A stretch of 35,782 bases of DNA from a virus (lineage: Duplodnaviria > Heunggongvirae > Uroviricota > Caudoviricetes), in IMG/VR virus record IMGVR_UViG_2651869830_000003. One strand, 5' to 3'. The notes under the pieces are model-generated. The model worked only from the letters and a program-made list of their open reading frames with translations, was not told where the DNA came from and searched no databases. Below, piece after piece: positions 493-34,286 of the stretch (the first letter of the stretch is position 1; each line of letters begins with the position of its first letter). The position numbers were made by a program, and so were the translations under genes.

Positions 493-519
493 AAAAAATA
501 AGCCCGTGTAAGGGAGATT
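493..519. repeat. attL core, 27 bp: aaaaaataagcccgtgtaagggagatt.
   Basis: Identical 27-mer at 34260-34286. Sits 80 bp from the 3' end of the integrase gene. Confidence 0.85.
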
Positions 520-598
520 TAGGGTGTCACCAGTAGGGGCTTTCAACGGTACAATGCGGGTTTGAGCGGCATAAATTACCACTGAAAGCCCTTAAACG

Positions 599-1612
599 TT
601 ACTCTACTGTGGACACTGTGTGGACACTCTCGGCCTCAGTGCCACCTCTTAGCGGATTAAGAGAAATGGCGTCCTGAAGGTACTCTGGCGCAAAATGAGC
701 GTAAACCATAGTTTGCTCAATCCGCGTGTGACCTAGTATCCGTTGTAGCGTGATAATACTTCCTCCATTAATCATGAAATGAGTGGCAAAGCTGTGCCTT
801 AGTGCATGTGTGGCTTGCCCCATTGGCAAATCCGGTTTTATTGCTTTCATTGTTCGTCTGAAGCGAGGGTAATCAGCATCAGGGAATAAAAAACCTCGTT
901 TGTTATCCGCGATCATTTTGGCAACAGCCTCTGAGATCGGGACGGTGCGTGGTTTGTTTGTTTTCGTTTTAACAAACGTGACGCGGTTATGGATGATATT
1001 TTCTGCTTTCAAACGAGCTGCTTCTCCCCAACGTGCTCCAGTACTCAGGCAAAGAATCGCAATCTTTTTATTGTCGCCGTCAAGAGCAGCAAGCAGTAAG
1101 GCAATTTCTTCCTGCGTGAGATAGCCTGTGTCTGGTTTTTCCTCCTTAAGCCTTTTTGTCCCTCTGATAGGGTGCTCACCAAAGAATAACTCCGCTTCAA
1201 TCAGGGCTGTAAACATGCCGCTAATACATGTTAAATCACGATTGATACTCGAAGGTTTAATACCCTGACTTCTTCGGGTGGCGCAGTACTGGCTGATAAG
1301 CGATTTCGTAATTTGAAATGCGCATGGGTCATTCGTTATTTTTGTGAAGATTTCAATTTTTCCAAGATTAGATTTCCCATGCTCTTCGTGTTTACCCTTT
1401 AAATCCCACCAGATCTGTGTCAGCTCCGACAGACGTCGCTTGTCTGTTGGTTTTGATAGCCATTCTTTATTGTGGTGGTTGTACAACGTGTATTTCTCGA
1501 AAGCGACAGCTTCGCTTTTCTTATCAAACTTCCTACGGATGCGTTTTCCATTACGTCCAGTAGGGCGGATGTCCACTTCATATCGACCATCATCGAGTTT
1601 TTTGATTGCCAT
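599..1612 (-). CDS. int: Tyrosine site-specific integrase, P2 Int-like, 337 aa.
   Basis: ATG start confirmed (cat at 1610-1612). Length equals P2 Int. C-terminal HxLRHxxAT...Y catalytic region visible (ATHALRHSFATHF...VYAHF). Adjacent to att core. Confidence 0.9.
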   Translation of the reverse strand: MAIKKLDDGRYEVDIRPTGRNGKRIRRKFDKKSEAVAFEKYTLYNHHNKEWLSKPTDKRRLSELTQIWWDLKGKHEEHGKSNLGKIEIFTKITNDPCAFQITKSLISQYCATRRSQGIKPSSINRDLTCISGMFTALIEAELFFGEHPIRGTKRLKEEKPDTGYLTQEEIALLLAALDGDNKKIAILCLSTGARWGEAARLKAENIIHNRVTFVKTKTNKPRTVPISEAVAKMIADNKRGFLFPDADYPRFRRTMKAIKPDLPMGQATHALRHSFATHFMINGGSIITLQRILGHTRIEQTMVYAHFAPEYLQDAISLNPLRGGTEAESVHTVSTVE

Positions 1613-1727
1613 CAGAAAACCCTCCGAGTGGTGTGTTTTTTGGCGACTACTAATCGCTTTTTTCGTGGTGGCTGAAATTTAGCCACCAATAGTAGGCACT
1701 TGTGATGAATATATTCACGATGAATTG

Positions 1728-2027
1728 TTAACCAGTCTTTTGACCGGAGTGGGGCGACGTTGTTTCGTTTTGCCCAAAGTGTGCGAGAGCGGGCGCAATT
1801 TGCCCGGACTCAGGAGCGATCTGATTGGTCATGAACCATAAAGTGTATTTGGTGAATTGTGGGGTCTGCAGGATGTTCATCATGACATCTGTTGGAGGTG
1901 TTGAACGACCACTTTCATAGTAACTCAGCGTGCCATACGGAACCCCTGTTAAATCAGCAAGTTGTTGTCTGCTCAAATACTCTGATTTTCGCATTAAGAC
2001 TATCTTCTCGCTTATCGTGTTTGACAT
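1728..2027 (-). CDS. C: Immunity repressor C, 99 aa, helix-turn-helix.
   Basis: Length and position match P2 C. HTH-like segment LSRQQLADLTGVPYGTLSYYESG. Divergent from cox. Confidence 0.85.
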   Translation of the reverse strand: MSNTISEKIVLMRKSEYLSRQQLADLTGVPYGTLSYYESGRSTPPTDVMMNILQTPQFTKYTLWFMTNQIAPESGQIAPALAHFGQNETTSPHSGQKTG

Positions 2028-2063
2028 GGTGTTTAGATCTCAATAGTATTTAGTTTAGATGTA
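2021..2063 (+). promoter_or_regulatory. Early promoter Pe: -35 TTGACA (2021-2026), 17-bp spacer, -10 TAGTAT (2044-2049). Direct-repeat operator half-sites TTTAGAT at 2032-2038 and 2054-2060, 22 bp apart, flank the -10.
   Basis: Sequence read directly. The layout matches the known P2 C operator (direct repeats flanking the Pe -10). Confidence 0.55.
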
Positions 2064-2141
2064 GATTGTTTAGTGCTTGGATGTGGGCACTAAAAGGCAT
2101 TATAAGGCATTAAACGCAATTCATGAGGGCTGGAGGACGAC

Positions 2142-2417
2142 ATGAGCAAGCAAGTAACACTCATGACTGATGCGATTCCTTATCAGGAGTTCGCAAAACT
2201 AATAGGAAAATCGACAGGAGCGGTTCGTCGGATGATCGATAAAGGAAAGCTGCCTGTAATTGATATGACCGATCCACAATCAGCTTCAGGTCGTGCTGGT
2301 GAATATTGGGTATACCTTCCGGCATGGAATAACGGACTAAAACTGGCTTATGAAAGCCGTCCTAAAGAGATTCGTGACGTCTGGTTGATGTGGTTAGGTC
2401 TCGGTGAACCACGTTAA
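2142..2417 (+). CDS. cox: Cox excisionase and transcriptional regulator, 91 aa.
   Basis: First gene of the rightward early operon. Length equals P2 Cox. SD ggagga upstream. Confidence 0.85.
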   Translation: MSKQVTLMTDAIPYQEFAKLIGKSTGAVRRMIDKGKLPVIDMTDPQSASGRAGEYWVYLPAWNNGLKLAYESRPKEIRDVWLMWLGLGEPR

Positions 2418-2427: not shown

Positions 2428-2598
2428 ATGAATGAGCCTCGTTGTATTGCTCAGTTATTGCGTAACGAAAGCCCCAGGGCAATTGACTTCACAATCACCC
2501 ACGGTAAGGGGCGTAAGGGAATCATTATCCGCACCAAAAAACAGAGTCCGTTAAAAAAGGCTCTGACCTTTCTGAAAAGCCGGAGGGTCTGGAAATGA
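2428..2598 (+). CDS. Small early-operon protein, 56 aa, P2 orf78-like.
   Basis: ATG at 2428 preceded by aaggag. Track ORF 2404-2598 trimmed to the SD-supported start. Confidence 0.5.
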   Translation: MNEPRCIAQLLRNESPRAIDFTITHGKGRKGIIIRTKKQSPLKKALTFLKSRRVWK

Positions 2599-3095
2599 CA
2601 GTGATGACGCTCAATCTCGTTGAAAAACAGCCAGCAGCTATGCGCCGGATAATTGGTAAGCATCTGGCCGTCCCTCGCTGGCAGGAGACATGCGATTATT
2701 ATAATCAGATGATGGAACGCGAACGGCTAACGGTTTGCTTCCATGCGCAGTTAAAACAGCGTCACGCAACGATGCGTTTTGAAGAAATGAACGACGTCGA
2801 ACGTGAACGGCTGGTTTGTGCAATTGATGAATTGCGTGGGGCATTCTCAAAACGCCGTCAGGTTGGCGCAAGTGAGTATGCATATATTAGTTTTTTAACA
2901 GTCAGTCAGCGTCGTACTTTATTTATGCATGCCGGATTGACTGAAAAAGAATTCAACCAGCCATACTGGCGAATTAATGAAGAATCATGTTACTGGCGTG
3001 ATGCTTTATTCCGTGCATTACGTGAATTATTCAGCCTGTTTGAGTATGCACCGACAATTCTGACGTCGGTAAAACCAGAGCAATATCTGCATTAA
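2595..3095 (+). CDS. B: Replication protein B-like, 166 aa (helicase-loader function in P2).
   Basis: Position after cox. Length identical to P2 B. SD ggaggg upstream. Confidence 0.65.
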   Translation: MTVMTLNLVEKQPAAMRRIIGKHLAVPRWQETCDYYNQMMERERLTVCFHAQLKQRHATMRFEEMNDVERERLVCAIDELRGAFSKRRQVGASEYAYISFLTVSQRRTLFMHAGLTEKEFNQPYWRINEESCYWRDALFRALRELFSLFEYAPTILTSVKPEQYLH

Positions 3096-3158
3096 GTAAT
3101 TAACCAGCGTTTTTAACGCACTTAATTGTGCGGGGCTTCTTTTTGCCTGGAGAAAGTC

Positions 3159-3383
3159 ATGCATACAGTTTCTGAAAATCAGTGCGGTAAATACGCATTA
3201 CTGCTGCAACAGGCCAGAACCGAAGCACAGGCCGACGCGGCGACGCGCTTTTCTTCTCATCTTGACGCCATGATTCGCCACATCACAAAGGCGGAGTTAT
3301 CCCGCGTGGAGATAGTCGAGCTGCTCAGTCAGGAGTCGGAAAAATTTCACAATATCGGATTGTCTCGCGGGGAGGTACTTTGA
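3159..3383 (+). CDS. Early hypothetical protein, P2 orf80-like.
   Basis: ATG at 3159 with ggaga SD. Part of the tightly packed early operon. Confidence 0.5.
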
Positions 3384-3682
3384 TGTCCTGTTCTCATTCA
3401 GTTGTATTACTGAATAACGCCTTAAAAATCGCCGTTATGAAAAATGGCGATTTGTCTCTTATTCAACTTTGTCTTGATAAAGAAAAACGCGACATCACTG
3501 AATCTATTATCGCGATTTATCAGAATGAATTAAACCTCCTGTCTGATGTGGTCAATTTACTTGTTAAACGCGCTGTATTCCACAAGCAAATTTCCTCAGT
3601 GGATGAACTGACAAAATTAACGACAGAACTTGCCAGTTATTGCGCTGATGTATCCAGGAAACTTAACGATAAAAGGAGCTGA
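3383..3682 (+). CDS. Early hypothetical protein, 99 aa, P2 orf81-like.
   Basis: ATG at 3383 with ggggagg SD. The track start at 3380 is TTG. Confidence 0.5.
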   Translation: MSCSHSVVLLNNALKIAVMKNGDLSLIQLCLDKEKRDITESIIAIYQNELNLLSDVVNLLVKRAVFHKQISSVDELTKLTTELASYCADVSRKLNDKRS

Positions 3683-3684
3683 TA

Positions 3685-3909
3685 ATGCCGGACAACGTAG
3701 ATTTTATTCAGGAACAACAGGCTGAATTACTGGAGCGCCAGATTAACGCGGCAAGGGTAAAACATTGCGGTGCTTCTGCGCTGGTTTGCGAAGAGTGTGA
3801 CGCGCCAATACCTGCTGCCCGTCGTGCGGCTTATCCGTCAGCCACGCGTTGTGTTTCCTGTCAGTCAGTCTTTGAAGCAAAAAACAAACATTACCGGAGA
3901 ACGGCATGA
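3685..3909 (+). CDS. TraR/DksA-family C4 zinc-finger protein, 74 aa, P2 orf82-like.
   Basis: CxxC...CxxC motif (CEECDAPI...RCVSCQ). aaggag SD. Confidence 0.6.
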   Translation: MPDNVDFIQEQQAELLERQINAARVKHCGASALVCEECDAPIPAARRAAYPSATRCVSCQSVFEAKNKHYRRTA

Positions 3910-4181
3910 GTATTCGTATTGAAATTGGCGAACGTTATGTCGTTACCAGTGACAGCTTCCAGTTTATTCTCCACGAGAAAAAGAGAGCGGAAAGCGGTAA
4001 AAACGCCGGTCAGGAATGGCTGGCGGTGGTTGGTTATTACCCGAAATTAAGCCAGCTTGTTTCCGGCCTGATGCATCACGATATTCTGACCGGAAGCGCA
4101 AAGTCTTTTGCTGATTTAAACGCGCAGGTTGAGCAACTCAGCAGGCGTTGTTCAGAGGCTTTTGGCTCATATGGCCGTTAA
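3906..4181 (+). CDS. Early hypothetical protein, 91 aa, P2 orf83-like.
   Basis: Overlapping-stop operon organisation with ggaga SD. Confidence 0.5.
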   Translation: MSIRIEIGERYVVTSDSFQFILHEKKRAESGKNAGQEWLAVVGYYPKLSQLVSGLMHHDILTGSAKSFADLNAQVEQLSRRCSEAFGSYGR

Positions 4182-6456
4182 AGCCTCCGGGCGTTTTGTC
4201 CCTCCGTCAGCATTTTCCGCAGGCACCGGTAAGACGTTTGCCGGTGCTTATGCATGGAACGCGCCACGCGAGGCTGTCGGGCGCGAAAGACCCCTTACAC
4301 GTGACGAGATGCGTCAGGTGCAAGGTGTTTTATCCACGATTAACCGCCTGCCTTACTTTTTGCGCTCGCTGTTTACTTCACGCTATGACTACATCCGGCG
4401 CAATAAAAGCCCGGTGCACGGGTTTTATTTCCTCACATCCACTTTTCAGCGTCGTTTATGGCCGCGCATTGAGCGTGTGAATCAGCGCCATGAAATGAAC
4501 ACCGAAGCGTCGATGCTGTTTCTGGCTGAGCGTGACCACTATGCGCGTCTGCCGGGGATGAATGACAAGGAGCTGAAAAAGTTTGCCGCCCGTATCTCAT
4601 CGCAGCTTTTCATGATGTATGAGGAACTCTGCGATGCCTGGGTGGATGCGCATGGCGAAAAAGAATCGCTGTTTACGGATGAGGCGCAGGCGCATCTGTA
4701 TGGTCATGTTGCTGGCGCTGCACGTGCTTTCAATATTTCCCCGCTTTACTGGAAAAAATACCGTAAAGGACAGATGACCACGAGGCAGGCATATTCTGCC
4801 ATTGCCCGTCTGTTTAACGATGAGTGGTGGACTCATCAGCTTAAAGGCCAGCGTATGCGCTGGCATGAAGCGTTACTGATTGCTGTCGGGGAGGTCAATA
4901 AAGACCGTTCTCCTTATGCCAGTAAACACGCCATTCGTGATGTGCGTGCGCGCCGCCAGGCAAATCTGGAATTTCTTAAATCGTGTGACCTTGAAAACAG
5001 GGAAACCGGCGAGCGCATCGACCTTATCAGTAAGGTGATGGGCAGTATTTCTAATCCTGAAATTCGCCGGATGGAGCTGATGAACACCATTGCCGGTATT
5101 GAGCGTTACGCCGCAGCAGAGGGTGATGTGGGGATGTTTATCACGCTGACCGCGCCGTCAAAGTATCACCCGACACGTCAGGTCAGAAAAGGCGAAAGTA
5201 AAACCGTCCAGCTAAATCACGGCTGGAACGATGAGGCATTTAATCCAAAGGATGCGCAGCGTTATCTCTGCCGTATCTGGAGCCTGATGCGCACGGCATT
5301 CAAGGATAATGATTTACAGGTCTACGGTTTGCGTGTCGTCGAGCCACACCACGACGGAACGCCGCACTGGCATATGATGCTTTTTTGTAATCCACGCCAG
5401 CGTAACCAGATTATCGAAATCATGCGTCGCTATGCGCTCAAAGAGGATGGTGACGAAAGAGGAGCCGCGCGAAACCGTTTTCAGGCAAAGCACCTTAACC
5501 GGGGCGGTGCTGCGGGATATATCGCGAAATACATTTCAAAAAATATCGACGGCTATGCACTGGATGGTCAGCTCGATAACGATACCGGTAAGCCGCTTAA
5601 AGATACTGCCGCGGCTGTTACCGCATGGGCGTCAACGTGGCGCATCCCGCAATTTAAAACGGTTGGCCTGCCGACAATGGGGGCTTACCGTGAACTACGC
5701 AAATTGCCTCGCGGCGTCAGTATTGCTGATGAGTTTGACGAACGCGTCGAGGCTGCTCGCGCTGCCGCAGACAGTGGTGATTTTGCGTTGTATATCAGCG
5801 CGCAGGGCGGGGCAAATGTCCCGCGCGATTGTCAGACTGTCAGGGTCGCCCGTAGCCCGTCGGATGAAGTTAACGAGTACGAGGAAGAAGTCGAGAGAGT
5901 GGTCGGCATTTACGCGCCGCATCTCGGCGCGCGTCATATTCATATCACCAGAACGACGGACTGGCGCATTGTTCCGAAAGTGCCGGTCGTTGAGCCTTTG
6001 ACTTTAAAAAGCGGCATCGCCGCGCCTCGGAGTCCTGTCAATAACTGTGGAAAGCTCACCGGTGGTGATACTTCGTTACCGGCTCCCACACCTTCTGAAC
6101 ACGCTGCAGCAGTGCTTAATCTGGTTGATGACGGTGTTATCGAATGGAATGACACGGAGGTCGTGAGGGCGCTCAGGGGGGCATTAAAACACGACCTGAG
6201 AACACCAAATCGTCAGCAAAGAAACGGAAGCCCGTTAAAACCACATGAAATTGCACCATCGGCCAGACTGACCCGGTCGGAAAGAATGCAAATTACCCGT
6301 ATCCGCGTTGACCTTGCTCAGAACGGTATCAGGCCGCAGCGATGGGAGCTTGAGGCGCTGGCGCGTGGCGCGACCGTAAATTATGACGGGAAAAAATTCA
6401 CGTATCTGGTAGATGAGGAGTGGCTGGAGGATATAACGGATATTAAGTGGAGCTAA
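4171..6456 (+). CDS. A: Rolling-circle replication initiator A (HUH endonuclease), 761 aa.
   Basis: ATG at 4171 gives exactly 761 aa as in P2 A (the track start at 4129 is TTG). HUH-like HWHMMLF and paired-tyrosine GYIAKYISK motifs. Confidence 0.9.
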   Translation: MAVKASGRFVPPSAFSAGTGKTFAGAYAWNAPREAVGRERPLTRDEMRQVQGVLSTINRLPYFLRSLFTSRYDYIRRNKSPVHGFYFLTSTFQRRLWPRIERVNQRHEMNTEASMLFLAERDHYARLPGMNDKELKKFAARISSQLFMMYEELCDAWVDAHGEKESLFTDEAQAHLYGHVAGAARAFNISPLYWKKYRKGQMTTRQAYSAIARLFNDEWWTHQLKGQRMRWHEALLIAVGEVNKDRSPYASKHAIRDVRARRQANLEFLKSCDLENRETGERIDLISKVMGSISNPEIRRMELMNTIAGIERYAAAEGDVGMFITLTAPSKYHPTRQVRKGESKTVQLNHGWNDEAFNPKDAQRYLCRIWSLMRTAFKDNDLQVYGLRVVEPHHDGTPHWHMMLFCNPRQRNQIIEIMRRYALKEDGDERGAARNRFQAKHLNRGGAAGYIAKYISKNIDGYALDGQLDNDTGKPLKDTAAAVTAWASTWRIPQFKTVGLPTMGAYRELRKLPRGVSIADEFDERVEAARAAADSGDFALYISAQGGANVPRDCQTVRVARSPSDEVNEYEEEVERVVGIYAPHLGARHIHITRTTDWRIVPKVPVVEPLTLKSGIAAPRSPVNNCGKLTGGDTSLPAPTPSEHAAAVLNLVDDGVIEWNDTEVVRALRGALKHDLRTPNRQQRNGSPLKPHEIAPSARLTRSERMQITRIRVDLAQNGIRPQRWELEALARGATVNYDGKKFTYLVDEEWLEDITDIKWS

Positions 6457-6560: not shown

Positions 6561-8108
6561 TTAATTGCTGTGCTCTTTAAAGAATAGATTAACTTCTTCA
6601 GGTGTTATATTGTCATCCATTTTATCAAATTTATCTGTGTCAACGATTTTTGTTTTTCTTAGCAAGGATAATATCTTGGCTTTATTGGGACTCGTTTCTT
6701 TTCCTTGGATCCAGTCAATATTCCATAAATTATTTACAGAAAATGTTTTCTCTTTTGTGAGTTCATCATTTATACGGACGCATAGAGCTGACTTATAAGA
6801 TTTATTCCACTCTAGGTTTATTTTTGCTTGAGTTCGCTGAAACCATATCTCAAGCATTTCTGTATTGGGTTGTTTATCCAGTTTTTTATGGAGTTGTTCT
6901 AGCTTTGTTAATTTTTTTTGGGTGTCATCACCATAAAGAAAACTGAGGAGTTTTGAGAAAATTGCCGTTCCTACTGGGTACGTTGTAGGGTTTTTTGCCA
7001 TGATGCTTGAAATAATACCAAGCATGGCATCAACCTGTTGGCCGTTATCTTTAATTGCCTTTCGCTTAAACAAATTCCTAAGAAAATCATTTAGATATCT
7101 AACGGTTGTTTTCGAGTTTGGATGCTTAAGTGAAAATAAATATATTGAATAGAGCATTTTCTGGAGTGACTTATGTCTTTTTTCTTTGATGTAGTCTTTT
7201 TTGGCTTGTTTCAACGAATGAAGTATGATGTCTTCATATAGTTCAGTTTTTTTTGAGTTTAGATCTAAACCAAAATCGCCCAACACATTGACTAAACATT
7301 TTGATATTATGTCTAAATCATCTTTGCTATTAGAGAAGATCCGGTAATCATCACGGTAGCGTACTACCTTGTAGTTTATTATTTTAAGTTCGTTAGTTTT
7401 TTTTCTTAATTCTATATCGATTTGACCCAAGATAAGCTCAGCAAATGTATCCATCAATGTGCTGCCGAGTGGAATACCATTTGTCTGGTTGTTCATCATC
7501 ATTTGAATGTGGCTGTCAATTAATCCCCCTGGGTTATTTTTGTTTTTTTTCTTCTTAGCATCTTCTTTTGATATGAATACCCATTCAAAACTATGAGTAT
7601 ATATTGATGGGTAGAAGTTTGAGATGTCAGTGCTGAACATGAATTCGTATTCAAGAGCAAGGGCAAGGCTTTTTTGTTCAAAATCTTCCCACCAATTCAT
7701 TACAGACGCAGCAATGTTTGACGAGTTGTCTTTTCTGACGGGGATGCTTGAACATGTAAAAAGATCGTTTGATTCAAAAGATTTGAATTTTTCTGTTATG
7801 ATTTCCCAGGTTGTTGGTGCTGTGATTTTTCTACAGAAGTAGACATAATAAAGGGGATTTATAAGTGTTATCCTACGCCAGCTATATAGACCATCTTTAC
7901 TGAGAAGCACCTCATAATTGATATCTTTACCCATCAGCTCCTTGGCGGTTGGTTCAATTTTAATTTTTTTGTTATGGATAGATGAATTAATATCATTTAA
8001 TAATGTGGTGAAATTAATATAAGCCGGTAATTCTAAGGTTGTGTAGGAGTCATGGCGAAGAAAATATGACAGTGCTTCTTCACTGGTTAGTTCATATACT
8101 TTTTTCAT
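6561..8108 (-). CDS. Reverse transcriptase, 515 aa, single-gene Abi-type (probably Abi-P2 class), with a C-terminal alpha-helical domain of unknown function.
   Basis: RT motifs in the N-terminal half: FSTDISNFYPSIY, GIPLGSTLMDTFAELILG, and YRDD catalytic box at 7347-7358 on the minus strand. Strongly AT-rich. Occupies the P2 tin/old site. Confidence 0.8.
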   Translation of the reverse strand: MKKVYELTSEEALSYFLRHDSYTTLELPAYINFTTLLNDINSSIHNKKIKIEPTAKELMGKDINYEVLLSKDGLYSWRRITLINPLYYVYFCRKITAPTTWEIITEKFKSFESNDLFTCSSIPVRKDNSSNIAASVMNWWEDFEQKSLALALEYEFMFSTDISNFYPSIYTHSFEWVFISKEDAKKKKNKNNPGGLIDSHIQMMMNNQTNGIPLGSTLMDTFAELILGQIDIELRKKTNELKIINYKVVRYRDDYRIFSNSKDDLDIISKCLVNVLGDFGLDLNSKKTELYEDIILHSLKQAKKDYIKEKRHKSLQKMLYSIYLFSLKHPNSKTTVRYLNDFLRNLFKRKAIKDNGQQVDAMLGIISSIMAKNPTTYPVGTAIFSKLLSFLYGDDTQKKLTKLEQLHKKLDKQPNTEMLEIWFQRTQAKINLEWNKSYKSALCVRINDELTKEKTFSVNNLWNIDWIQGKETSPNKAKILSLLRKTKIVDTDKFDKMDDNITPEEVNLFFKEHSN

Positions 8109-8298: not shown

Positions 8299-8317
8299 GG
8301 CGAGGCGGGGAAAGCAC
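8299..8317. other. cos site: 19-nt cohesive-end sequence ggcgaggcggggaaagcac.
   Basis: Matches the P2 cohesive-end sequence as I recall it. Lies at the expected place between the tin/old-equivalent island and Q. Confidence 0.55.
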
Positions 8318-8494: not shown

Positions 8495-9529
8495 TCAGCC
8501 GTTGTCAGTGTCCAGTGAGTAGTTTTTAAAGCGGATGACCTCCTGACCGAGCCAGCCGTTTATCTCGCGGATCCTGTCCTGTAACGGGATAAGCTCATTG
8601 CGGACAAAGACCTTTGCCACTTTCTCAATATCACCCAGCGACCCGACGTTCTCCGGCTTGCCGCCCATCAACTGAAAGGGGATGCGGTGCGCGTCCAGCA
8701 GGTCAGCGGCGCTGGCTTTTTTGATATTAAAAAAATCGTCCTTCGTTGCCACTTCACTGAGCGGGATAATTTTAATGCCGTCAGCTTTCCCCTGCGGGGC
8801 ATAGAGAAACAGGTTTTTAAAGTTGTTGCGGCCTTTCGACTTCACCATGTTTTCGCGGAGCATTTCGATATCGTTGCGATCCTGCACGGCATCAGTGACG
8901 TACATGATATATCCGGCATGAGCGCCGTTTTCGTAATACTTGCGGCGGAACAGCGTGGCCGACTCATTCAGCCAGGCAGAGTTAAGGGCGCTGAGATATT
9001 CCGGCAGACCGTACAGCTCCTGATTAATATCCGGCTCCAGCAGGTGAAACACGGAGCCGGGCGCGAAAGGTGTCGGCTCGTTGAAGGACGGCACCCACCA
9101 GTAAACATCCTCCTCCACGCCACGGCGGGTATATTTTGCCGGTGAGGTTTCCAGTCTGATGACCTTACCGGTGGTGCTGTAACGCTTTTCCAGAAACGCA
9201 TTACCGAACACCAGAAAATCCAGCACAAAGCGGCTGAAATCCTGCTGGGAAAGCCACGGATGCGGGATAAATGTTGAGGCCAGAATATTACGTTTGACGT
9301 AAATCGGTGAGCTGTGATGCACGGCAGCACGCAGGCTTTTTGCCAGACCGGTAAAGCTGACCGGTGGTTCATACCATCTGCCGTTACTGATGCACTCGAC
9401 GTAATCCAGAATGTCACGGCGGTCGAGTACCGGTACCGGCTCGCCAAAGGTGAATGCTTCCATTTTCGGGGCGCTGGCGGTCATTTTTTTGGCCGCAGGT
9501 TGCGGTGTTTTCCCTTTTTTCTTGCTCAT
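8495..9529 (-). CDS. Q: Portal protein, 344 aa.
   Basis: Length equals P2 Q. Directly downstream of the terminase gene on the same strand. Confidence 0.9.
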   Translation of the reverse strand: MSKKKGKTPQPAAKKMTASAPKMEAFTFGEPVPVLDRRDILDYVECISNGRWYEPPVSFTGLAKSLRAAVHHSSPIYVKRNILASTFIPHPWLSQQDFSRFVLDFLVFGNAFLEKRYSTTGKVIRLETSPAKYTRRGVEEDVYWWVPSFNEPTPFAPGSVFHLLEPDINQELYGLPEYLSALNSAWLNESATLFRRKYYENGAHAGYIMYVTDAVQDRNDIEMLRENMVKSKGRNNFKNLFLYAPQGKADGIKIIPLSEVATKDDFFNIKKASAADLLDAHRIPFQLMGGKPENVGSLGDIEKVAKVFVRNELIPLQDRIREINGWLGQEVIRFKNYSLDTDNG

Positions 9530-26568: not shown

Positions 26569-27221
26569 TGATAAAGGTAAAAATTTATAAAGCAGAAAAG
26601 GATATAACTAAAAGTGAGTTATTACATAAAGTAAATGACAACCTCTATGATGAAGATAAAGGATATGGTTTTCAAATCATTAATAACTCTGAAGTGCTTA
26701 AACTAAGATTTACCATGAGAAGCATTAGCAAGCAAAGCTTAGAATATGCTAATGGCGAGCGTTCAGAGGTTGAAATAGCAACTTACTTAAATGTGGACTT
26801 TGGCGTCAGACAAGGGAAAAAAATCATACTATATGCCACTAATCCTCCATTAAGTATGAAAGTGCCTTATACTATGGTGCAAAAACTATTTGGTGAAGAT
26901 AGTGGCTTGAGACCAGTAGAATTTGATCTGAGAAAAATTGTAAATGGTCTTTCTGAGGGCTTTGACATCAAGATAAAATCCATGTCTCTATCTAATATCT
27001 CTGTTGATCCTTTTACTTTAGCAAAGACAAAAATAGTAAGCTCAAAGAATCTCCAAGAAATTTATCAGAATAAATACATGAATAGTTCGGCCGTTTTTGA
27101 TTCCGTACATTTCTTCGTTAACGGAATTGAAACGGAATTATCTAGGACGGGTAGATTCCGTGTGAGAGAGAGTCAGCTTCCAACACTTTTATCCATCTTA
27201 GAAACTCTCAGAATTTTGTGA
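26565..27221 (+). CDS. Hypothetical protein, 218 aa, third gene of the accessory operon.
   Basis: ATGA stop/start overlap with the upstream gene (translational coupling). ggagg SD. The track start at 26538 is trimmed to the ATG at 26565. Confidence 0.65.
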   Translation: MMIKVKIYKAEKDITKSELLHKVNDNLYDEDKGYGFQIINNSEVLKLRFTMRSISKQSLEYANGERSEVEIATYLNVDFGVRQGKKIILYATNPPLSMKVPYTMVQKLFGEDSGLRPVEFDLRKIVNGLSEGFDIKIKSMSLSNISVDPFTLAKTKIVSSKNLQEIYQNKYMNSSAVFDSVHFFVNGIETELSRTGRFRVRESQLPTLLSILETLRIL

Positions 27222-27545: not shown

Positions 27546-28736
27546 ATGAGTGACTATCATCACGGCGTGCAGGTGCTGGAGATTAACGAGGGCACCCGCG
27601 TCATTTCCACTGTATCCACGGCCATTGTCGGCATGGTCTGCACGGCCAGCGATGCGGATGCGGAAACCTTCCCCCTCAATAAACCTGTGCTGATTACCAA
27701 TGTGCAGACCGCAATTGCAAAGGCCGGTAAAAAAGGCACGCTGGCGGCATCGTTGCAGGCCATCGCCGACCAGTCAAAACCAGTGACTGTTGTTGTGCGC
27801 GTGGAAGACGGCACCGGCGACGACGAGGAAACGAAACTCGCGCAGACCGTTTCCAATATCATCGGCACCACTGACGAAAACGGTCAGTACACCGGACTGA
27901 AAGCCCTGCTGGCGGCGGAGTCGGTAACCGGTGTTAAACCGCGTATTCTCGGTGTGCCGGGACTGGATACCAAAGAGGTGGCTGTTGCACTGGCATCCGT
28001 CTGTCAGAAGCTGCGCGCTTTCGGGTATATCAGCGCATGGGGCTGTAAGACCATTTCCGAGGTGAAAGCCTACCGCCAGAATTTCAGCCAGCGTGAGCTG
28101 ATGGTCATCTGGCCGGATTTCCTCGCATGGGATACGGTCACCAGTACCACCGCCACCGCGTATGCCACCGCCCGTGCGCTGGGTCTGCGCGCTAAAATCG
28201 ACCAGGAGCAGGGCTGGCATAAAACGCTGTCCAATGTCGGGGTGAACGGTGTTACCGGCATCAGCGCATCCGTCTTCTGGGATTTGCAGGAGTCCGGCAC
28301 CGATGCTGACCTGCTTAACGAGTCAGGCGTCACTACGCTGATTCGCCGCGACGGTTTCCGTTTCTGGGGTAACCGTACCTGCTCTGATGACCCGCTGTTC
28401 CTCTTTGAAAACTACACCCGCACCGCGCAGGTGCTGGCCGACACGATGGCTGAGGCGCACATGTGGGCGGTGGACAAGCCCATCACTGCAACGCTGATTC
28501 GCGACATCGTTGACGGCATCAATGCCAAATTCCGTGAGCTGAAAACAAACGGCTATATCGTGGATGCGACCTGCTGGTTCAGCGAAGAATCCAACGATGC
28601 GGAAACCCTTAAGGCCGGAAAACTGTATATCGACTACGACTATACCCCGGTGCCTCCTCTTGAAAACCTGACCCTGCGCCAGCGTATTACCGATAAATAT
28701 CTGGCAAATCTGGTCACCTCGGTTAACAGCAATTAA
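27546..28736 (+). CDS. FI: Contractile tail sheath protein, 396 aa.
   Basis: Length and position match P2 FI. Confidence 0.9.
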   Translation: MSDYHHGVQVLEINEGTRVISTVSTAIVGMVCTASDADAETFPLNKPVLITNVQTAIAKAGKKGTLAASLQAIADQSKPVTVVVRVEDGTGDDEETKLAQTVSNIIGTTDENGQYTGLKALLAAESVTGVKPRILGVPGLDTKEVAVALASVCQKLRAFGYISAWGCKTISEVKAYRQNFSQRELMVIWPDFLAWDTVTSTTATAYATARALGLRAKIDQEQGWHKTLSNVGVNGVTGISASVFWDLQESGTDADLLNESGVTTLIRRDGFRFWGNRTCSDDPLFLFENYTRTAQVLADTMAEAHMWAVDKPITATLIRDIVDGINAKFRELKTNGYIVDATCWFSEESNDAETLKAGKLYIDYDYTPVPPLENLTLRQRITDKYLANLVTSVNSN

Positions 28737-28748
28737 GGAGCCTGACCG

Positions 28749-29267
28749 ATGGCAATGCCGCGCAAACTCAAGTTAATGAACGTCTTTCTGAACGGCTACA
28801 GCTATCAGGGCGTTGCAAAGTCCGTCACGCTGCCAAAACTGACCCGTAAGCTCGAAAACTATCGCGGTGCGGGGATGAACGGCAGCGCACCGGTAGACCT
28901 CGGCCTTGATGACGATGCGCTGTCAATGGAGTGGTCGCTCGGGGGCTTCCCGGATTCGGTTATCTGGGAGCTTTACGCCGCAACCGGCGTGGATGCCGTA
29001 CCGATTCGTTTTGCTGGCTCTTACCAGCGCGACGATACCGGCGAAACGGTGGCCGTCGAGGTGGTCATGCGTGGCCGTCAGAAAGAAATCGACACCGGCG
29101 AGGGTAAACAGGGAGAAGACACCGAGTCGAAAATCTCCGTGGTCTGCACCTATTTCCGGCTGACGATGGACGGTAAGGAGCTGGTCGAAATCGACACCAT
29201 CAACATGATTGAGAAGGTGAACGGCGTCGACCGGCTGGAGCAACACCGCCGCAATATCGGCCTGTAA
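28749..29267 (+). CDS. FII: Tail tube protein, 172 aa.
   Basis: Length and position match P2 FII. Confidence 0.9.
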   Translation: MAMPRKLKLMNVFLNGYSYQGVAKSVTLPKLTRKLENYRGAGMNGSAPVDLGLDDDALSMEWSLGGFPDSVIWELYAATGVDAVPIRFAGSYQRDDTGETVAVEVVMRGRQKEIDTGEGKQGEDTESKISVVCTYFRLTMDGKELVEIDTINMIEKVNGVDRLEQHRRNIGL

Positions 29268-29323
29268 TTTTCATCCGGTCAGCCTGGCTGACCGGTTAAC
29301 CCCGATTCAGAAGTGAGAAAACC

Positions 29324-29599
29324 ATGAACAAAGAAAATGTGATTACCCTGGACAATCCGGTCAAGCGTGGTGAGCAGGTTATCGAACAGGTCACGCTGAT
29401 GAAACCCAGTGCGGGGACGCTGCGCGGTGTCAGTCTGGCTGCGGTCGCAAACTCAGAAGTCGATGCACTGATTAAGGTGCTGCCGCGCATGACGGCACCG
29501 ATGCTGACCGAGCAGGAAGTCGCCGCGCTGGAACTGCCTGACCTTGTGGCGCTGGCCGGTAAGGTGGTCGGTTTTTTGTCGCCGAACTCGGTGCAGTAA
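29324..29599 (+). CDS. E: Tail assembly chaperone E, 91 aa.
   Basis: Length and position match P2 E. Confidence 0.8.
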   Translation: MNKENVITLDNPVKRGEQVIEQVTLMKPSAGTLRGVSLAAVANSEVDALIKVLPRMTAPMLTEQEVAALELPDLVALAGKVVGFLSPNSVQ

Positions 29600-29751
29600 C
29601 GTTCCCGAAAAATCTGTCGGTCGATGACCTGATGGCGGATGTGGCAGTGATATTTCACTGGCCGCCATCAGAACTGTATCCCATGAGCCTGACCGAACTC
29701 ATCACATGGCGCGAAAAGGCGCTACGGCGAAGCGGAAACACGAATGAGTAA
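29324..29751 (+). CDS. E': E+E' frameshift product, 142 aa, made by a programmed -1 ribosomal frameshift at the slippery T6G (29572-29578) and terminating at TAA 29749-29751, overlapping the T start.
   Basis: T6G heptamer near the end of E. The -1 frame stays open to 29751. Predicted 142 aa equals the P2 E+E' length. Confidence 0.7.
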
Positions 29752-32191
29752 CAATGTAAAATTACAGGTATTGCTCAGGGCTGTTGACCAGGCATCCCGC
29801 CCGTTTAAATCCATCCGCACAGCGAGCAAGTCGCTGTCGGGGGATATCCGGGAAACACAAAAATCACTGCGCGAGCTGAACGGTCACGCATCCCGTATTG
29901 AGGGATTTCGCAAGACCAGCGCACAGCTCGCCGTGACTGGTCATGCACTTGAAAAGGCACGGCAGGAGGCCGAAGCCCTTGCCACACAGTTTAAAAACAC
30001 TGAACGTCCGACCCGTGCTCAGGCGAAAGTGCTGGAATCCGCAAAGCGTGCGGCGGAGGACTTACAGGCGAAATATAACCGCCTGACGGATTCCGTTAAA
30101 CGCCAGCAGCGGGAACTGGCCGCTGTGGGAATTAATACCCGCAATCTTGCACATGATGAGCAGGGGCTGAAAAACCGTATCAGTGAAACCATCGCACAGC
30201 TTAACCGGCAGCGTGACGCGCTGGCGCGTGTCTGTGCGCAACAGGCAAAACTTAACGCAGTAAAACAGCGTTATCAGGCAGGAAAGGAGCTGGCCGGAAA
30301 TATGGCCTCAGTGGGCGCTGCCGGTGTGGGGATTACTGCTGCGGGAACGATGGCCGGAGTTAAGTTGCTGATGCCCGGTTATGAGTTTGCGCAGAAAAAC
30401 TCAGAATTACAGGCTGTGCTCGGTGTGGCAAAAGACTCCGCCGAAATGGCTGCACTACGCAAGCAGGCGCGTCAGCTCGGCGACAATACCGCAGCCTCGG
30501 CAGATGATGCAGCCGGTGCGCAGATTATCATTGCGAAAGCCGGTGGGGATGTTGATGCCATTCAGGCGGCAACGCCGGTCACGCTGAATATGGCGCTGGC
30601 GAACCGTCGCACAATGGAAGAAAACGCCGCCCTGCTGATGGGGATGAAATCCGCCTTTCAGCTTTCAAACGATAAGGTCGCTCATATCGGGGATGTTCTC
30701 TCCATGACGATGAACAAAACCGCCGCCGATTTTGACGGCATGAGCGATGCGCTGACCTATGCCGCACCTGTGGCAAAAAATGCCGGTGTCAGCATTGAAG
30801 AAACCGCCGCAATGGTCGGGGCGCTGCATGATGCAAAAATCACAGGCTCAATGGCGGGGACGGGAAGCCGTGCCGTGTTAAGTCGCCTGCAGGCACCAAC
30901 GGGAAAAGCATGGGATGCACTCAAAGAGCTTGGCGTGAAAACCTCAGACAGTAAGGGGAATACCCGACCAGTATTTACCATTCTGAAAGAAATGCAGGCC
31001 AGTTTTGAGAAAAACCGGCTCGGTACTGCCCAGCAGGCTGAATACATGAAAACTATTTTCGGGGAGGAGGCCAGCTCAGCCGCCGCCGTGCTGATGACTG
31101 CCGCCTCAACCGGAAAGCTGGACAAACTGACCGCTGCGTTTAAAGCCTCAGACGGGAAGACCGCCGAGCTGGTAAATATCATGCAGGACAACCTCGGCGG
31201 TGACTTTAAGGAGTTTCAGTCCGCTTATGAGGCGGTGGGGACTGACCTGTTTGACCAGCAGGAAGGCGCGCTGCGTAAGCTCACTCAGACGGCCACAAAG
31301 TATGTGTTAAAACTCGACGGCTGGATCCAGAAAAACAAATCACTGGCGTCAACCATCGGCATCATTGCCGGTGGCGCGCTGGCGCTGACTGGCATCATCG
31401 GTGCAATTGGTCTTGTAGCCTGGCCGGTTATCACCGGCATCAATGCCATCATCGCGGCAGCAGGCGCAATGGGGGCAGTCTTCACGACGGTTGGCAGTGC
31501 CGTTATGACTGCTATCGGGGCGATTAGCTGGCCGGTTGTGGCAGTGGTGGCCGCAATTGTCGCCGGGGCGTTGCTTATCCGTAAATACTGGGAGCCTGTC
31601 AGCGCATTCTTTGGCGGTGTGGTGGAAGGGCTGAAAGCGGCATTTGCGCCGGTGGGAGAACTGTTCACGCCACTGAAGCCGGTGTTTGACTGGCTGGGGG
31701 AAAAGTTACAGGCTGCGTGGCAGTGGTTTAAAAACCTGATTGCACCGGTCAAAGCCACCCGGGACACCCTGAACCGTTGCCGTGACACGGGCGTCATGTT
31801 CGGGCAGGCACTGGCTGACGCGCTGATGCTGCCGCTTAATGCGTTCAACAAATTGCGCAGCGGCATTGACTGGGTACTGGAAAAGCTCGGGGTCATCAAC
31901 AAAGAGTCAGACACACTTGACCAGACCGCCGCCAGAACTCATGCAGCCACGTATGGCACCGGTGATTATATTCCGGCGACCAGCTCTTATGCAGGCTATC
32001 AGGCTTATCAGCCGGTCACGGCACCGGCTGGCCGCTCTTATGTGGACCAGAGTAAAAACGAATATCACATCAGCCTGACGGGTGGTACTGCGCCGGGGAC
32101 ACAGCTTGACCGCCAGTTACAGGATGCGCTCGAAAAATACGAGCGGGATAAACGTGCGCGCGCCCGTGCCAGCATGATGCATGACGGTTAA
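29744..32191 (+). CDS. T: Tail tape measure protein, 815 aa.
   Basis: Length equals P2 T. Coiled-coil and alanine/glycine-rich hydrophobic segments typical of tape measure proteins. Confidence 0.9.
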   Translation: MSNNVKLQVLLRAVDQASRPFKSIRTASKSLSGDIRETQKSLRELNGHASRIEGFRKTSAQLAVTGHALEKARQEAEALATQFKNTERPTRAQAKVLESAKRAAEDLQAKYNRLTDSVKRQQRELAAVGINTRNLAHDEQGLKNRISETIAQLNRQRDALARVCAQQAKLNAVKQRYQAGKELAGNMASVGAAGVGITAAGTMAGVKLLMPGYEFAQKNSELQAVLGVAKDSAEMAALRKQARQLGDNTAASADDAAGAQIIIAKAGGDVDAIQAATPVTLNMALANRRTMEENAALLMGMKSAFQLSNDKVAHIGDVLSMTMNKTAADFDGMSDALTYAAPVAKNAGVSIEETAAMVGALHDAKITGSMAGTGSRAVLSRLQAPTGKAWDALKELGVKTSDSKGNTRPVFTILKEMQASFEKNRLGTAQQAEYMKTIFGEEASSAAAVLMTAASTGKLDKLTAAFKASDGKTAELVNIMQDNLGGDFKEFQSAYEAVGTDLFDQQEGALRKLTQTATKYVLKLDGWIQKNKSLASTIGIIAGGALALTGIIGAIGLVAWPVITGINAIIAAAGAMGAVFTTVGSAVMTAIGAISWPVVAVVAAIVAGALLIRKYWEPVSAFFGGVVEGLKAAFAPVGELFTPLKPVFDWLGEKLQAAWQWFKNLIAPVKATRDTLNRCRDTGVMFGQALADALMLPLNAFNKLRSGIDWVLEKLGVINKESDTLDQTAARTHAATYGTGDYIPATSSYAGYQAYQPVTAPAGRSYVDQSKNEYHISLTGGTAPGTQLDRQLQDALEKYERDKRARARASMMHDG

Positions 32192-32205
32192 GGAGGTGAC
32201 GAAAA

Positions 32206-32685
32206 ATGATGCTCGCGTTAGGTATGTTTGTTTTTATGCGCCAGACGCTGCCACACCAGACCATGCAGCGTGAATCAGATTATCGCTGGCCGTCAAATTC
32301 CCGTATCGGTAAACGGGATGCCTTTCAGTTTCTCGGTGTTGGCGAGGAAAACATCACGCTTGCCGGTGTGCTTTATCCCGAACTGACCGGCGGAAAGCTG
32401 ACGATGACCACGCTCAGGCTGATGGCAGAGGAAGGTCGGGCGTGGCCGTTGCTGGATGGCACTGGCATGATTTACGGCATGTATGTCATCAGCAGGGTGA
32501 GTGAAACAGGGAGTATTTTCTTTGCAGACGGCACACCCCGGAAAATTGATTTTACGCTGTCGCTCACCCGCGTTGATGAATCACTGGCCGCACTTTATGG
32601 CGATATCGGTAAACAGGCGGAATCGCTCATCGGTAAGGCTGGCAGTATGGCGACTAAATTCACGGGTATGACGGGGGCGGGATAA
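32206..32685 (+). CDS. U: Tail protein U, 159 aa.
   Basis: Length and position match P2 U. Confidence 0.85.
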   Translation: MMLALGMFVFMRQTLPHQTMQRESDYRWPSNSRIGKRDAFQFLGVGEENITLAGVLYPELTGGKLTMTTLRLMAEEGRAWPLLDGTGMIYGMYVISRVSETGSIFFADGTPRKIDFTLSLTRVDESLAALYGDIGKQAESLIGKAGSMATKFTGMTGAG

Positions 32686-33848
32686 TGCTGGATGCGCTGA
32701 CATTTGATGCAGGCAGTACACTGACGCCGGATTACATGCTGATGCTCGACAGCAGGGATATTACCGGCAATATCAGCGACCGTCTGATGAGCATGACCCT
32801 GACGGATAACCGGGGCTTTGAGGCTGACCAGCTTGATATTGAACTGAACGACGCCGACGGGCAGGTAGGGCTACCGGTTCGTGGCGCTGTCCTGACGGTG
32901 TATATCGGCTGGAAAGGTTTTGCCCAGGTATGCAAAGGGAAATTTACCGTTGATGAGGTTGAACACCGGGGCGCACCGGATGTGGTCACCATCCGCGCCC
33001 GGAGTGCAGATTTTCGCGGGACGCTCAATTCCCGCCGGGAAGGCTCCTGGCATGACACCACGCTCGGTGCGATTGTTGAGGCGATAGCCACCCGTAACAG
33101 GCTGGAAGCCAGTGTCGCTCCGTCACTGGCCGGAATTAAAATCCCGCACATCGACCAGTCGCAGGAGTCCGATGTGAAATTCCTGACCCGTCTTGCTGAA
33201 CGCAACGGCGGTGAGGTGTCGGTAAAAATGGGAAAACTGCTGTTTCTCAAAGCGGGGCAGGGGGTGACGGCCAGTGGTAAAAAAATCCCGCAGATCACCA
33301 TCACCCGCAGCGACGGTGACCGTCATCATTTTGCGATTGCTGACCGTGGAGCCTATACCGGCGTAACGGCAAAGTGGTTACACACCAAAGACCCGAAACC
33401 GCAAAAGCAGAAGGTAAAACTGAAACGCAAAAAGAAAGAGAAACACCTGCGCGCACTGGAGCACCCGAAAGCAAAACCGGTCACGCAGAAGAAAGCGCCA
33501 AAAGTACCGGAAGCGCGCGAAGGTGAATACATGGCCGGTGAGGCTGACAACGTTTTTGCCCTGACTACGGTATATGCCACGAAAGCGCAGGCCATGCGCG
33601 CCGCTCAGGCGAAGTGGGATAAACTGCAACGGGGTGTGGCGGAGTTCTCCATCAGCCTGGCTACCGGTCGGGCAGATATTTACACGGAAACACCGGTTAA
33701 AGTGTCAGGCTTTAAGCGCGTCATAGACGAGCAGGACTGGACAATCACTAAGGTGACACATTTTCTGAATAATAGCGGCTTCACGACGTCCTTGGAGCTT
33801 GAGGTCAGGCTTTCTGATGTGGAGTACGAAACAGAAGATGATGAGTGA
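32685..33848 (+). CDS. D: Tail protein D, 387 aa.
   Basis: Length and position match P2 D. Confidence 0.85.
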   Translation: MLDALTFDAGSTLTPDYMLMLDSRDITGNISDRLMSMTLTDNRGFEADQLDIELNDADGQVGLPVRGAVLTVYIGWKGFAQVCKGKFTVDEVEHRGAPDVVTIRARSADFRGTLNSRREGSWHDTTLGAIVEAIATRNRLEASVAPSLAGIKIPHIDQSQESDVKFLTRLAERNGGEVSVKMGKLLFLKAGQGVTASGKKIPQITITRSDGDRHHFAIADRGAYTGVTAKWLHTKDPKPQKQKVKLKRKKKEKHLRALEHPKAKPVTQKKAPKVPEAREGEYMAGEADNVFALTTVYATKAQAMRAAQAKWDKLQRGVAEFSISLATGRADIYTETPVKVSGFKRVIDEQDWTITKVTHFLNNSGFTTSLELEVRLSDVEYETEDDE

Positions 33849-33929
33849 TGTTTTTATTTTATCTATTTGTTTTATAAGGATAAATTAACTAAAATGGCAC
33901 CATCAACAAAACCGGAAGAGGTGCTCGCG

Positions 33930-34148
33930 ATGTTTCATTGTCCTTTATGCCAGCATGCCGCACATGCGCGTACAAGCCGCTATATCACTGACACGACAAA
34001 AGAGCGTTATCACCAGTGTCAGAACGTGAATTGCAGCGCCACGTTCATCACTTATGAGTCGGTACAGAGATACATCGTGAAGCCGGGAGAAGTCCACGCC
34101 GTAAGGCCGCACCCGTTGCCGTCAGGGCAGCAAATTATGTGGATGTAA
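33930..34148 (+). CDS. ogr: Ogr late-gene transcriptional activator, zinc finger, 72 aa.
   Basis: ATG at 33930 (MFHCPLCQ). CxxC...CxxxxC zinc-binding motif. Last phage gene before attR, as in P2. Confidence 0.8.
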   Translation: MFHCPLCQHAAHARTSRYITDTTKERYHQCQNVNCSATFITYESVQRYIVKPGEVHAVRPHPLPSGQQIMWM

Positions 34149-34160
34149 TTACAAACAGGA

Positions 34161-34186
34161 AGCCCCTCAGTCGAGGGGCTTTTTTG
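34161..34186 (+). terminator. Rho-independent terminator after ogr.
   Basis: 8-bp perfect stem agcccctc/gaggggct with loop agtc, followed by a T6 tract. Confidence 0.65.
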
Positions 34187-34259
34187 TCGATGTGGTCAAT
34201 GTGTGGACGTGACCAGAAATAAATCCTTTTATTTCATTGTATTACGCGTAAAAAATAAG

Positions 34260-34286
34260 CCCGTGTAAGGGAGATTACACAGGCTA
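34260..34286. repeat. attR core, 27 bp, identical to attL.
   Basis: Exact match to 493-519. Downstream of the ogr terminator. Confidence 0.85.

Follow-up and report, generated by a model that had tools for sequence, protein, structure and literature searches.

A P2-type prophage at locI (3′ end of cyaR) with three cargo islands at P2 accessory loci

The DNA analysed here (IMG/VR record IMGVR_UViG_2651869830_000003; "the window" is this whole stretch of 35,782 nt) contains a P2-type (Peduovirus) prophage of 33.76 kb, bracketed by exact repeats and flanked by chromosomal genes (Table 1). The repeat, AAAAAATAAGCCCGTGTAAGGGAGATT, occurs in exactly two copies, at 493-519 and 34250-34276 of the + strand; it is exactly 27 bp long, because the neighboring bases differ between the copies on both sides (a/t before, t/a after), and both copies equal the annotated P2 attP core (27/27). 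A preliminary description of this DNA had reported a prophage bounded by these att cores, with the 27-mer at 493-519 and 34260-34286; the repeat, the bounding of the prophage and the first position hold, while the second coordinate was off by 10. It had also set int beside attL and the ogr terminator beside attR, as is the case (int begins 80 nt from attL, and ogr with its terminator lies just inside attR), and had pointed to additional copies of the 27-mer as what could redefine the boundaries: the window holds no third copy with up to 3 mismatches allowed, and 0 are expected by chance.

Table 1. Features of the prophage and its chromosomal flanks (window coordinates)
Feature	Position	Strand	Evidence
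yegR, small lipoprotein, left chromosomal flank	16..333	+	region 98.8% identical to K-12; yegR annotation in matching genomes
Chromosomal DNA resembling decayed phage P arm, possible fossil attR	396..492	.	hairpin, then TCGATGTGGTCAATG, then degenerate second Int arm repeat
attL core, 27 bp	493..519	+	exact repeat; 27/27 to P2 attP core
Cox-binding region	536-609	+	74/74 identical to annotated P2 site
int, P2-type tyrosine integrase	599..1612	-	99.7% to P2 Int, 337/337 aa; Pfam Int_N + Phage_integrase
Int P′ arm sites	607-633	+	27/27 identical to annotated P2 sites
C repressor	1728-2027	-	100% identical to P2 C
Pe/O1/O2 and Pc	2021-2124	.	Pe-O1-O2 40/40, Pc 25/26 vs P2
cox	2142-2417	+	Cox 98.9% vs P2
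Early operon: orf78, B, orf80, orf81, orf82, orf83, A (4171-6456)	2428..6456	+	full length, 88-100% aa identity to P2
ori nick site, within A	near 6029	+	surrounding 31 bp 31/31 to P2
Cargo 1, putative AbiP2 reverse-transcriptase abortive-infection gene, replaces P2 orf91/tin/old	6561..8108	-	34% GC
cos, 19-nt cohesive end sequence	8299..8317	+	19/19 to P2 cosL/cosR
Q (portal), P (large terminase)	8495..11301	-	99.1% and 99.8% aa identity to P2, full length
pO/pP activator site	11365-11395	+	31/31 vs P2
O operon: O, N, M, L, X, Y, K, lysA, lysB, lysC, R, S	to 17675	+	full length, 94-100% to P2
Cargo 2, gene for 357-aa protein, replaces P2 orf30	17779..18852	-	predicted two-TM, all-helical; phrog_9373; 34% GC
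V operon: V, W, J, I, H, G	18939..23935	+	V 94.7%, W/J/I 99-100%, G 91% vs P2
Cargo 3, three-gene 3HP-like system, replaces P2 fun(Z)	24219..27221	+	Hp1 24219-25310, Hp2 25321-26568, Hp3 26565-27221
F operon + ogr: FI, FII, E, E+E′, T, U, D, ogr (33930-34148)	27546..34148	+	98.7-100% aa identity, full length
ogr/F terminator	34159-34182	+	23/24 vs P2
Int P arm	34187-34214	+	28/28 vs P2
IHF site	34218-34251	+	29/34 vs P2
attR core, 27 bp, also the last 27 nt of cyaR	34250..34276	+	exact repeat; overlaps Rfam CyaR match
cyaR (RyeE) sRNA gene, intact	34250..34338	-	Rfam RF00112 100.7 bits, model positions 1-85/85
yegQ, now trhP, right chromosomal flank	34421..35782	-	Pfam Peptidase_U32 5e-89; yegQ/trhP annotation in matching genomes

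The site is locI, which P2 prefers for attachment in E. coli; work by Barreiro and Haggard-Ljungquist in 1992 reportedly deals with its history. There the core makes up the last 27 nt of cyaR, an sRNA gene, a point that the preliminary description had overlooked; the gene stays intact at attR, since the phage brings its own copy of those 27 nt. Phage 186 (at ileY) and Fels-2/SopE-phi (at ssrA) likewise carry a copy of a small structured-RNA gene's 3′ end, and their integration regenerates the gene (186 annotation; PMC3448106). Unlike the target of such tRNA- and tmRNA-integrating phages, the one here is an Hfq-type regulatory sRNA, and the shared part is limited to terminator loop, 3′ stem and U tail; the terminator hairpin is seen in the predicted fold. 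The cyaR RNA has been named as the insertion site of P2-type prophages, among them the ogr-D′ element of K-12, Wphi2 of E. coli W and P2*B of E. coli B (PMC3032704 Table 2).

The preliminary description had stated that K-12 carries a P2 remnant beside yegQ, and ogrK and a D fragment do lie there (PMC3032704 Table 2). This cryptic remnant (ogrK, yegZ/D′), between yegR and cyaR-yegQ, occupies the same site in the same orientation; its D′-to-attR segment is 98% identical to window positions 33634-34528 and has the same P-arm variant. Everything from inside the attL core (window position 510) to inside D (33634) is missing from K-12, whereas the whole prophage is present here. The K-12 remnant derives by deletion from such a prophage.

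Relative to P2 (NC_001895), which occupies locI of E. coli C, the prophage shares the core, Int, C, Cox, arm sites, cos, ori and Ogr (100% identical), and keeps the order and sequence of the replication, head, lysis and tail genes, identical or at 94-100%. All of the conserved P2 proteins (37/37) are full length and ungapped, at 88-100% identity, and the earlier claim that no essential gene is disrupted agrees with this, no conserved P2 gene being truncated or frameshifted; point mutations may inactivate a protein. The E/E′ slippery site is conserved, and the E+E′ (-1 frameshift) product is identical to that of P2. Outside the three cargo slots and the tip of H, the DNA runs collinear with that of P2 at 96-97.5% identity. 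H is a mosaic tail fiber: global alignment shows it near-identical to that of P2 as far as about aa 470 and diverging beyond; its C-terminal ∼200 aa differ, and the tip DNA aligns in part only, at 85.9%. The pF region also departs from P2, being identical to that of phage Wphi, which, unlike this prophage, lacks a gene between S and V and carries orf44 in the G-FI slot; the attP core of Wphi is unlike that of P2 (PMC3448106). In total, ∼26.9 kb of the 33.76 kb (about 80%) aligns to P2, mostly at 96.5-97.5% identity, for roughly 77% overall. The species cut-off in ICTV practice is a whole-genome nucleotide identity of about 95%. Judged by sequence, the element lies outside the strict-sense species Peduovirus P2 as represented by NC_001895 and is a homoimmune, mosaic relative within the same genus.

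The three cargo islands, each of 34% GC, take the place of P2 old/tin, orf30 (together with the pV region) and fun(Z), a swap that went unremarked in the preliminary description. Two of the three are recognisable as putative anti-phage systems. The product of the first matches the PADLOC AbiP2 model over its full length (1.3e-161, residues 1-513), Pfam RVT_1 and PDB 7R08 (1127.7 bits), and is assigned on these matches to AbiP2 (Abi/UG reverse transcriptase), in the P2 A-cos hotspot; AbiP2 has been described as a P2-specific system (PMC9122126; PMC13586616). The third island looks like a divergent variant of a three-gene system, with three adjacent, co-oriented genes that match PADLOC models Hp1 (5e-41), Hp2 (7.5e-11) and Hp3 (4.2e-11) in order; we call it divergent because the Hp2 and Hp3 matches are modest. 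The PADLOC names Hp1-3 we take to stand for Rst_3HP, an anti-phage system of three genes known from P2-like prophages. The proteins of the island fall in PHROGs without assigned function and have no sequence relatives in the PDB. Rst_3HP is mostly prophage-encoded (PMC9090908). The island is found at ≥80% coverage in only 11 of 5426 complete E. coli genomes. A sibling prophage at the same site in MDK9L1, with no pseudogenes flagged, has a 100% match to this G-FI cargo and differs in the other two slots.

The protein of the second island has no Pfam, PADLOC or NCBIfam match, a PDB profile search with it was empty, and a permissive Pfam scan of 40 members of its family yielded nothing useful; its AlphaFold model (pLDDT 79.5) gave only generic long-helix matches to the PDB in Foldseek (TM ≤0.30). 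The family numbers at least 348 clusters and is spread over P2-like prophages of several genera and one satellite-like island, and homologues fill the same slot in P2-like phages of Kosakonia and Yersinia, lying antisense in the plaque-forming Yersinia phages. We tentatively raise the possibility, which we regard as doubtful, that this protein is an undescribed single-gene anti-phage or superinfection-exclusion determinant, and that the S-V slot is a third working defense hotspot of P2-like phages. Rousset et al. 2022 (PMC9122126) and Moura de Sousa et al. 2026 (PMC13586616) describe defense hotspots of P2-like prophages in which, as here, low-GC cargo lies in the interval from A to Q/cos and among the tail genes; near-identical cores with different cargo, as in the MDK9L1 sibling, typify these hotspots. 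There is no difference in kind from such prophages; here three slots are filled at once, one by a gene of unassigned function.

With a probability of about 0.9, we take the element to be a complete P2-type temperate myovirus (Peduovirus, with P2 immunity) at locI, inserted by Int and IHF into the 3′ end of cyaR, held in lysogeny by C and carrying three cargo islands. The phage tyrosine integrase, with IHF, would have recombined the attP core with the identical 27 bp at the chromosomal cyaR 3′ end; the phage-borne copy would thereby rebuild cyaR at attR, with a 27-bp duplicate staying at attL. C would hold lysogeny by acting at Pe, escape, which we expect to occur spontaneously and rarely rather than through SOS, would require Cox and Int, and the accessory genes of the low-GC islands, at known variable slots (A-to-cos, S-to-V and G-to-FI), would be expressed from the prophage.

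The core belongs to an intrinsic terminator, and such sequences can recur, so that the repeats might be two copies of a terminator-like element that flank phage genes by chance and are not recombination products. We give this reading next to no weight: there are just two copies where chance predicts 0, the repeat is the mapped attP core of P2, with the P and P′ arms of P2 flanking it, and an attB rebuilt from the left flank, one core and the right flank is 100% identical over 1219 nt to the natural unoccupied site of NZ_CP019005, a match that contradicts chance placement. This is the empty-site comparison that the preliminary description had proposed. The same description judged the prophage likely inducible and suggested mitomycin C. 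Read as SOS inducibility, this would mean excision and lysis after mitomycin C, as with 186 or lambda. The wider family does include mitomycin-inducible members, as some "P2" prophages of natural strains, such as that of E. coli HS, carry tum and respond to mitomycin (PMC11195241), but the switch here is a poor fit. Its repressor, of 99 aa and P2-identical, is unrelated to the 192-aa CI repressor of 186; no homologue of the 186 proteins Tum, CI, CII or Apl was matched in the prophage; scans for a LexA box (CTGT-N8-ACAG) and for AT-rich CTG-N10-CAG sites found none; and P2 lacks an SOS-inducible phenotype (PMC7708051). With neither a LexA-controlled tum nor a CI/CII/Apl switch, the element falls outside the 186-type (Eganvirus-like) SOS-inducible class. 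Mitomycin C induction is therefore unsupported, and we think it very improbable.

Less far-fetched, though still unlikely, is that the prophage is structurally complete but defective, either locked in the chromosome or without infectious particles, for example through loss of the V late promoter with the S-V cargo or through missense changes. Among the four Ogr-dependent late promoters of P2-type phages (pP, pO, pV and pF), the pO/pP site is fully kept and pF is that of Wphi, whereas the Ogr-responsive pV region has been replaced together with orf30: the sequence upstream of V, to 18938, is non-P2, the P2 pV activator site is absent (best match elsewhere in the window 18/28), and neither a clean TGT-N12-ACA element nor a canonical dyad is seen in the replaced region. 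Expression of the essential V operon can thus only be presumed. Moreover, at megablast sensitivity, no sequenced phage isolate has the S-V segment or the G-FI cargo. Set against this are intact ORFs throughout, a TGTTGT half-site at a P2-like distance from the V start, conservation of the S-V arrangement in 60 complete genomes at 90-99.9% identity (one genome having two copies), and the homologous antisense genes in the slot of the plaque-forming Yersinia phages. As no isolate carries these segments, we infer the viability of this exact mosaic from the 60 genomes and the Yersinia isolates. On the preferred reading, that of a complete P2-type temperate phage, the prophage would be viable and released by the Cox- and Int-dependent route, and its cargo would serve in defense.

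Earlier work already documents how P2 integrates at locI, along with the 27-bp core, cyaR as the target and the ogr-D′ remnant of K-12, and the element is ordinary apart from its anti-phage cargo genes. The prophage itself thus offers little new biology, and its practical value is in annotation: its boundaries are fixed, cyaR is shown to be preserved, and the K-12 remnant gains a full-length counterpart with defined deletion end points. The prophage is predicted to have P2 immunity and to show no induction by mitomycin C. P2 is a helper for P4-type satellites, and the same helper capacity is predicted here. AbiP2, the 3HP-like system and the 357-aa membrane protein probably shape the phage sensitivity of the strain.

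The identical yegR-attL-int junction is present in 812 of the 5426 complete E. coli genomes (about 15%). Just outside attL, the 15-mer TCGATGTGGTCAATG is identical to positions 34187-34201 of the phage P arm, and the bases downstream of it are partly conserved. This P-arm-like sequence, possibly a fossil attR, is also present in unoccupied sites and in K-12.

Two copies of the 27-mer AAAAAATAAGCCCGTGTAAGGGAGATT, and no more, are present in the window, both on the plus strand: 493-519 and 34250-34276. The preliminary description had placed the first copy correctly, whereas its second position, 34260-34286, was ten bases too high. A search of the window allowing up to three mismatches gave no third copy, the chance expectation being none. 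The adjoining bases are different at either end of the copies, which sets the repeat length at exactly 27 bp; the annotated attP core of phage P2 has the identical sequence.

The insertion had been described as next to yegQ; more exactly, the core forms the 3′-terminal 27 nt of cyaR (RyeE), an sRNA gene that Rfam CyaR matches over its full length on the minus strand (34338-34253; 100.7 bits, gathering score 47). Within cyaR, the core accounts for the loop, the U tail and the 3′ half of the terminator stem, and because the phage brings an identical 27 nt, cyaR is intact at attR. When the two flanks were joined in silico through a single core, the resulting empty attB matched the unoccupied yegR-cyaR-yegQ site of strain Ecol_AZ155 at 100% over 1219 nt. 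The element has the anatomy of the canonical Int/IHF-mediated attP × attB product. The site is commonly occupied; the yegR-attL-int junction is common to 812 of 5426 complete E. coli genomes, and the E. coli W genome paper tabulates “cyaR RNA” as an insertion site, with Wphi2 (P2) in W, ogr-D' in K-12 and P2*B in B (PMC3032704). The P2 remnant (ogrK/yegZ) that the preliminary description mentioned for K-12 does lie at this site: the K-12 left flank aligns with the window to position 510, inside the attL core, then jumps to 33634 in gene D, from where it runs at 98% identity across ogr, the P arm, attR and cyaR. The remnant thus derives by deletion from a similar prophage. Read on the minus strand, downstream of int, the core at 493-519 gives CCCTTACACGGG then CTTATTTTTTT, a small hairpin and a T run; this partial cyaR terminator at attL may also terminate the C-int transcript.

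Megablast matches to the interval between the repeats are P2-like phages (Peduovirus) at 95-97% identity, and the element measures 33,757 bp (one core counted) as compared to 33,593 bp for P2. When the 42 annotated P2 proteins were used gene by gene as tblastn queries, 37 were found full length and ungapped in the window, with 88-100% amino-acid identity; the E+E' frameshift product does not differ from P2's. The full P2 set of recombination, switch, replication, packaging and morphogenesis parts is present, and P2 and the window are collinear apart from three cargo slots and the tip of H.

Conservation of P2 features in the element, and its three cargo slots
Feature	Window position	Strand	Relation to P2
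Int			99.7% identity
C repressor			100% identity
Cox			98.9% identity
A			96.3% identity
Ogr			100% identity
Head, lysis, tail genes			94-100% identity
cos	8299-8317		19/19
ori nick region			31/31
Pe-O1-O2			40/40
Pc			25/26
Cox site			74/74
P' arm			27/27
P arm			28/28
IHF site			29/34
ogr terminator			23/24
pO/pP activator site			31/31
A-to-cos slot	6561-8108		AbiP2 in place of orf91/tin/old
S-to-V slot	17779-18852	minus	357-aa protein in place of orf30
G-to-FI slot	24219-27221		three genes matching PADLOC Hp1, Hp2, Hp3, in place of fun(Z)

Judged by its sequence, the element matches P2 in every defining respect but the pV promoter, where the signals are mixed; the pF promoter region is unlike that of P2 and instead shares its exact sequence with the viable phage Wphi. 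Whole-genome nucleotide identity to P2 is ∼77% with coverage counted, and we classify the element as a mosaic relative, predicted to be homoimmune, rather than the P2 type species in the strict sense. For the tail fibre H, BLAST showed the C-terminus only; global alignment revealed near-identity to P2 over the first ∼470 residues, while the distal receptor-binding part is different. Distal H (window 22770-23200, codons ∼470-610) is a mosaic of insertions, deletions and ∼50% identity to P2, and G is 91% identical, which together suggest a receptor specificity different from that of P2. The least conserved early gene is orf81 (3383-3682), at 87.9% amino-acid identity to P2 as compared to 97-100% for its neighbours, a divergence that hints at a local recombination patch.

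All three cargo islands have a GC content of 34%, versus 48-57% in the core modules. The AbiP2 assignment is based on PADLOC (1.3e-161), an RVT_1 domain and 1127.7 bits to PDB 7R08. The trio of Hp1, Hp2 and Hp3 matches we take to be the Rst_3HP system. Rst_3HP is mostly prophage-encoded (PMC9090908); the exact G-to-FI cargo is rare, being found in only 11 of 5426 complete genomes and in none of the sequenced phage records, and the 3HP-like proteins have no sequence relatives in PDB. One of the three genes is annotated by NCBI, in one genome, as a PD-(D/E)XK nuclease domain protein. In strain MDK9L1 (NZ_CP081333.1, positions 1-30000 of our sequence L014), the cyaR/trhP site is likewise occupied by a sibling P2-like prophage, with identical 3HP cargo and an H gene of the same length (2046 nt), but with a DEAD/DEAH helicase instead of AbiP2 in the A-to-cos slot and an empty S-to-V slot. 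The pair is a natural example of independent cargo swapping per slot, and fits the rapid modular swapping reported for P2-like prophages (PMC13586616, PMC9122126).

The S-to-V protein has two hydrophobic helices (predicted two-TM), and AlphaFold models it as all-helical (pLDDT 79.5). Searches of Pfam, PADLOC, NCBIfam and PDB gave no relative, and Foldseek gave generic matches only, with no fold match for the model. Its family comprises at least 348 clusters, every one annotated “hypothetical”. Its members travel in P2-like prophages of other genera, occupying this slot in P2-like phages of Yersinia and Kosakonia, and also in a satellite-like integrase/AlpA/primase island of Sedimenticola. Published work already covers the att core, the site in cyaR, the remnant in K-12 and the hotspot cargo; the function of this predicted membrane protein is the sole thread with some novelty.

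The replaced S-to-V DNA includes the pV activator site of P2, the V-upstream region (18853-18938), which in P2 holds the Ogr-dependent pV promoter, having been swapped together with the cargo gene. The new region retains a TGTTGT half-site at a P2-like distance from the V start, and contains no clean TGT-N12-ACA dyad, whereas in the Yersinia phage whose cargo gene is homologous, a canonical TTGT-N12-ACAA lies upstream of V. The loss of the P2 pV site and the lack of a clean dyad, together with the absence of the S-to-V segment from sequenced phage isolates, would favour a defective prophage; we nevertheless consider this improbable, given that 60 complete genomes share the segment at 90-99.9% identity and that isolated P2-like phages of Yersinia carry a gene of 38% identity there, also in antisense orientation. 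We favour an intact prophage, and the earlier wording, “fully intact”, is borne out by the full-length, ungapped P2 proteins but needs a caveat for pV.

From established P2 biology, C would repress Pe and so keep lysogeny, excision would require Int plus Cox, and Ogr would switch on the late operons. The suggestion that the prophage is likely inducible, with mitomycin C as the test, does not fit a C repressor identical to that of P2, the lack of any match in the window to 186 antirepressor Tum, 186 CI, CII or Apl, or the lack of a LexA box there. P2 itself is described as not SOS-inducible (PMC7708051). Where “P2” prophages do respond to mitomycin, as in E. coli HS, induction depends on tum (PMC11195241), a gene that the HS prophage has and our element lacks. 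Spontaneous low-level release is the behaviour we would expect instead.

A minor curiosity is an apparent fossil P arm in the chromosomal flank. Just left of the attL core, window 396-492 resembles a decayed phage attR arm, with, in order, a terminator-like hairpin, TCGATGTGGTCAATG as a perfect match to the P2 P arm at 34187-34201, then a degenerate second Int arm repeat, and finally a spacer to the core that is ∼16 bp shorter. The same sequence is present in “empty” sites and in K-12 (∼1895-1992 of our K-12 sequence L002), and locI, the preferred P2 attachment site, may therefore itself be the remnant scar of an older P2-like prophage. In a scan of species representatives, E. coli showed both spacings; the fossil one was also seen in Shigella, and the phage one in E. 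ruysiae and an Escherichia sp.
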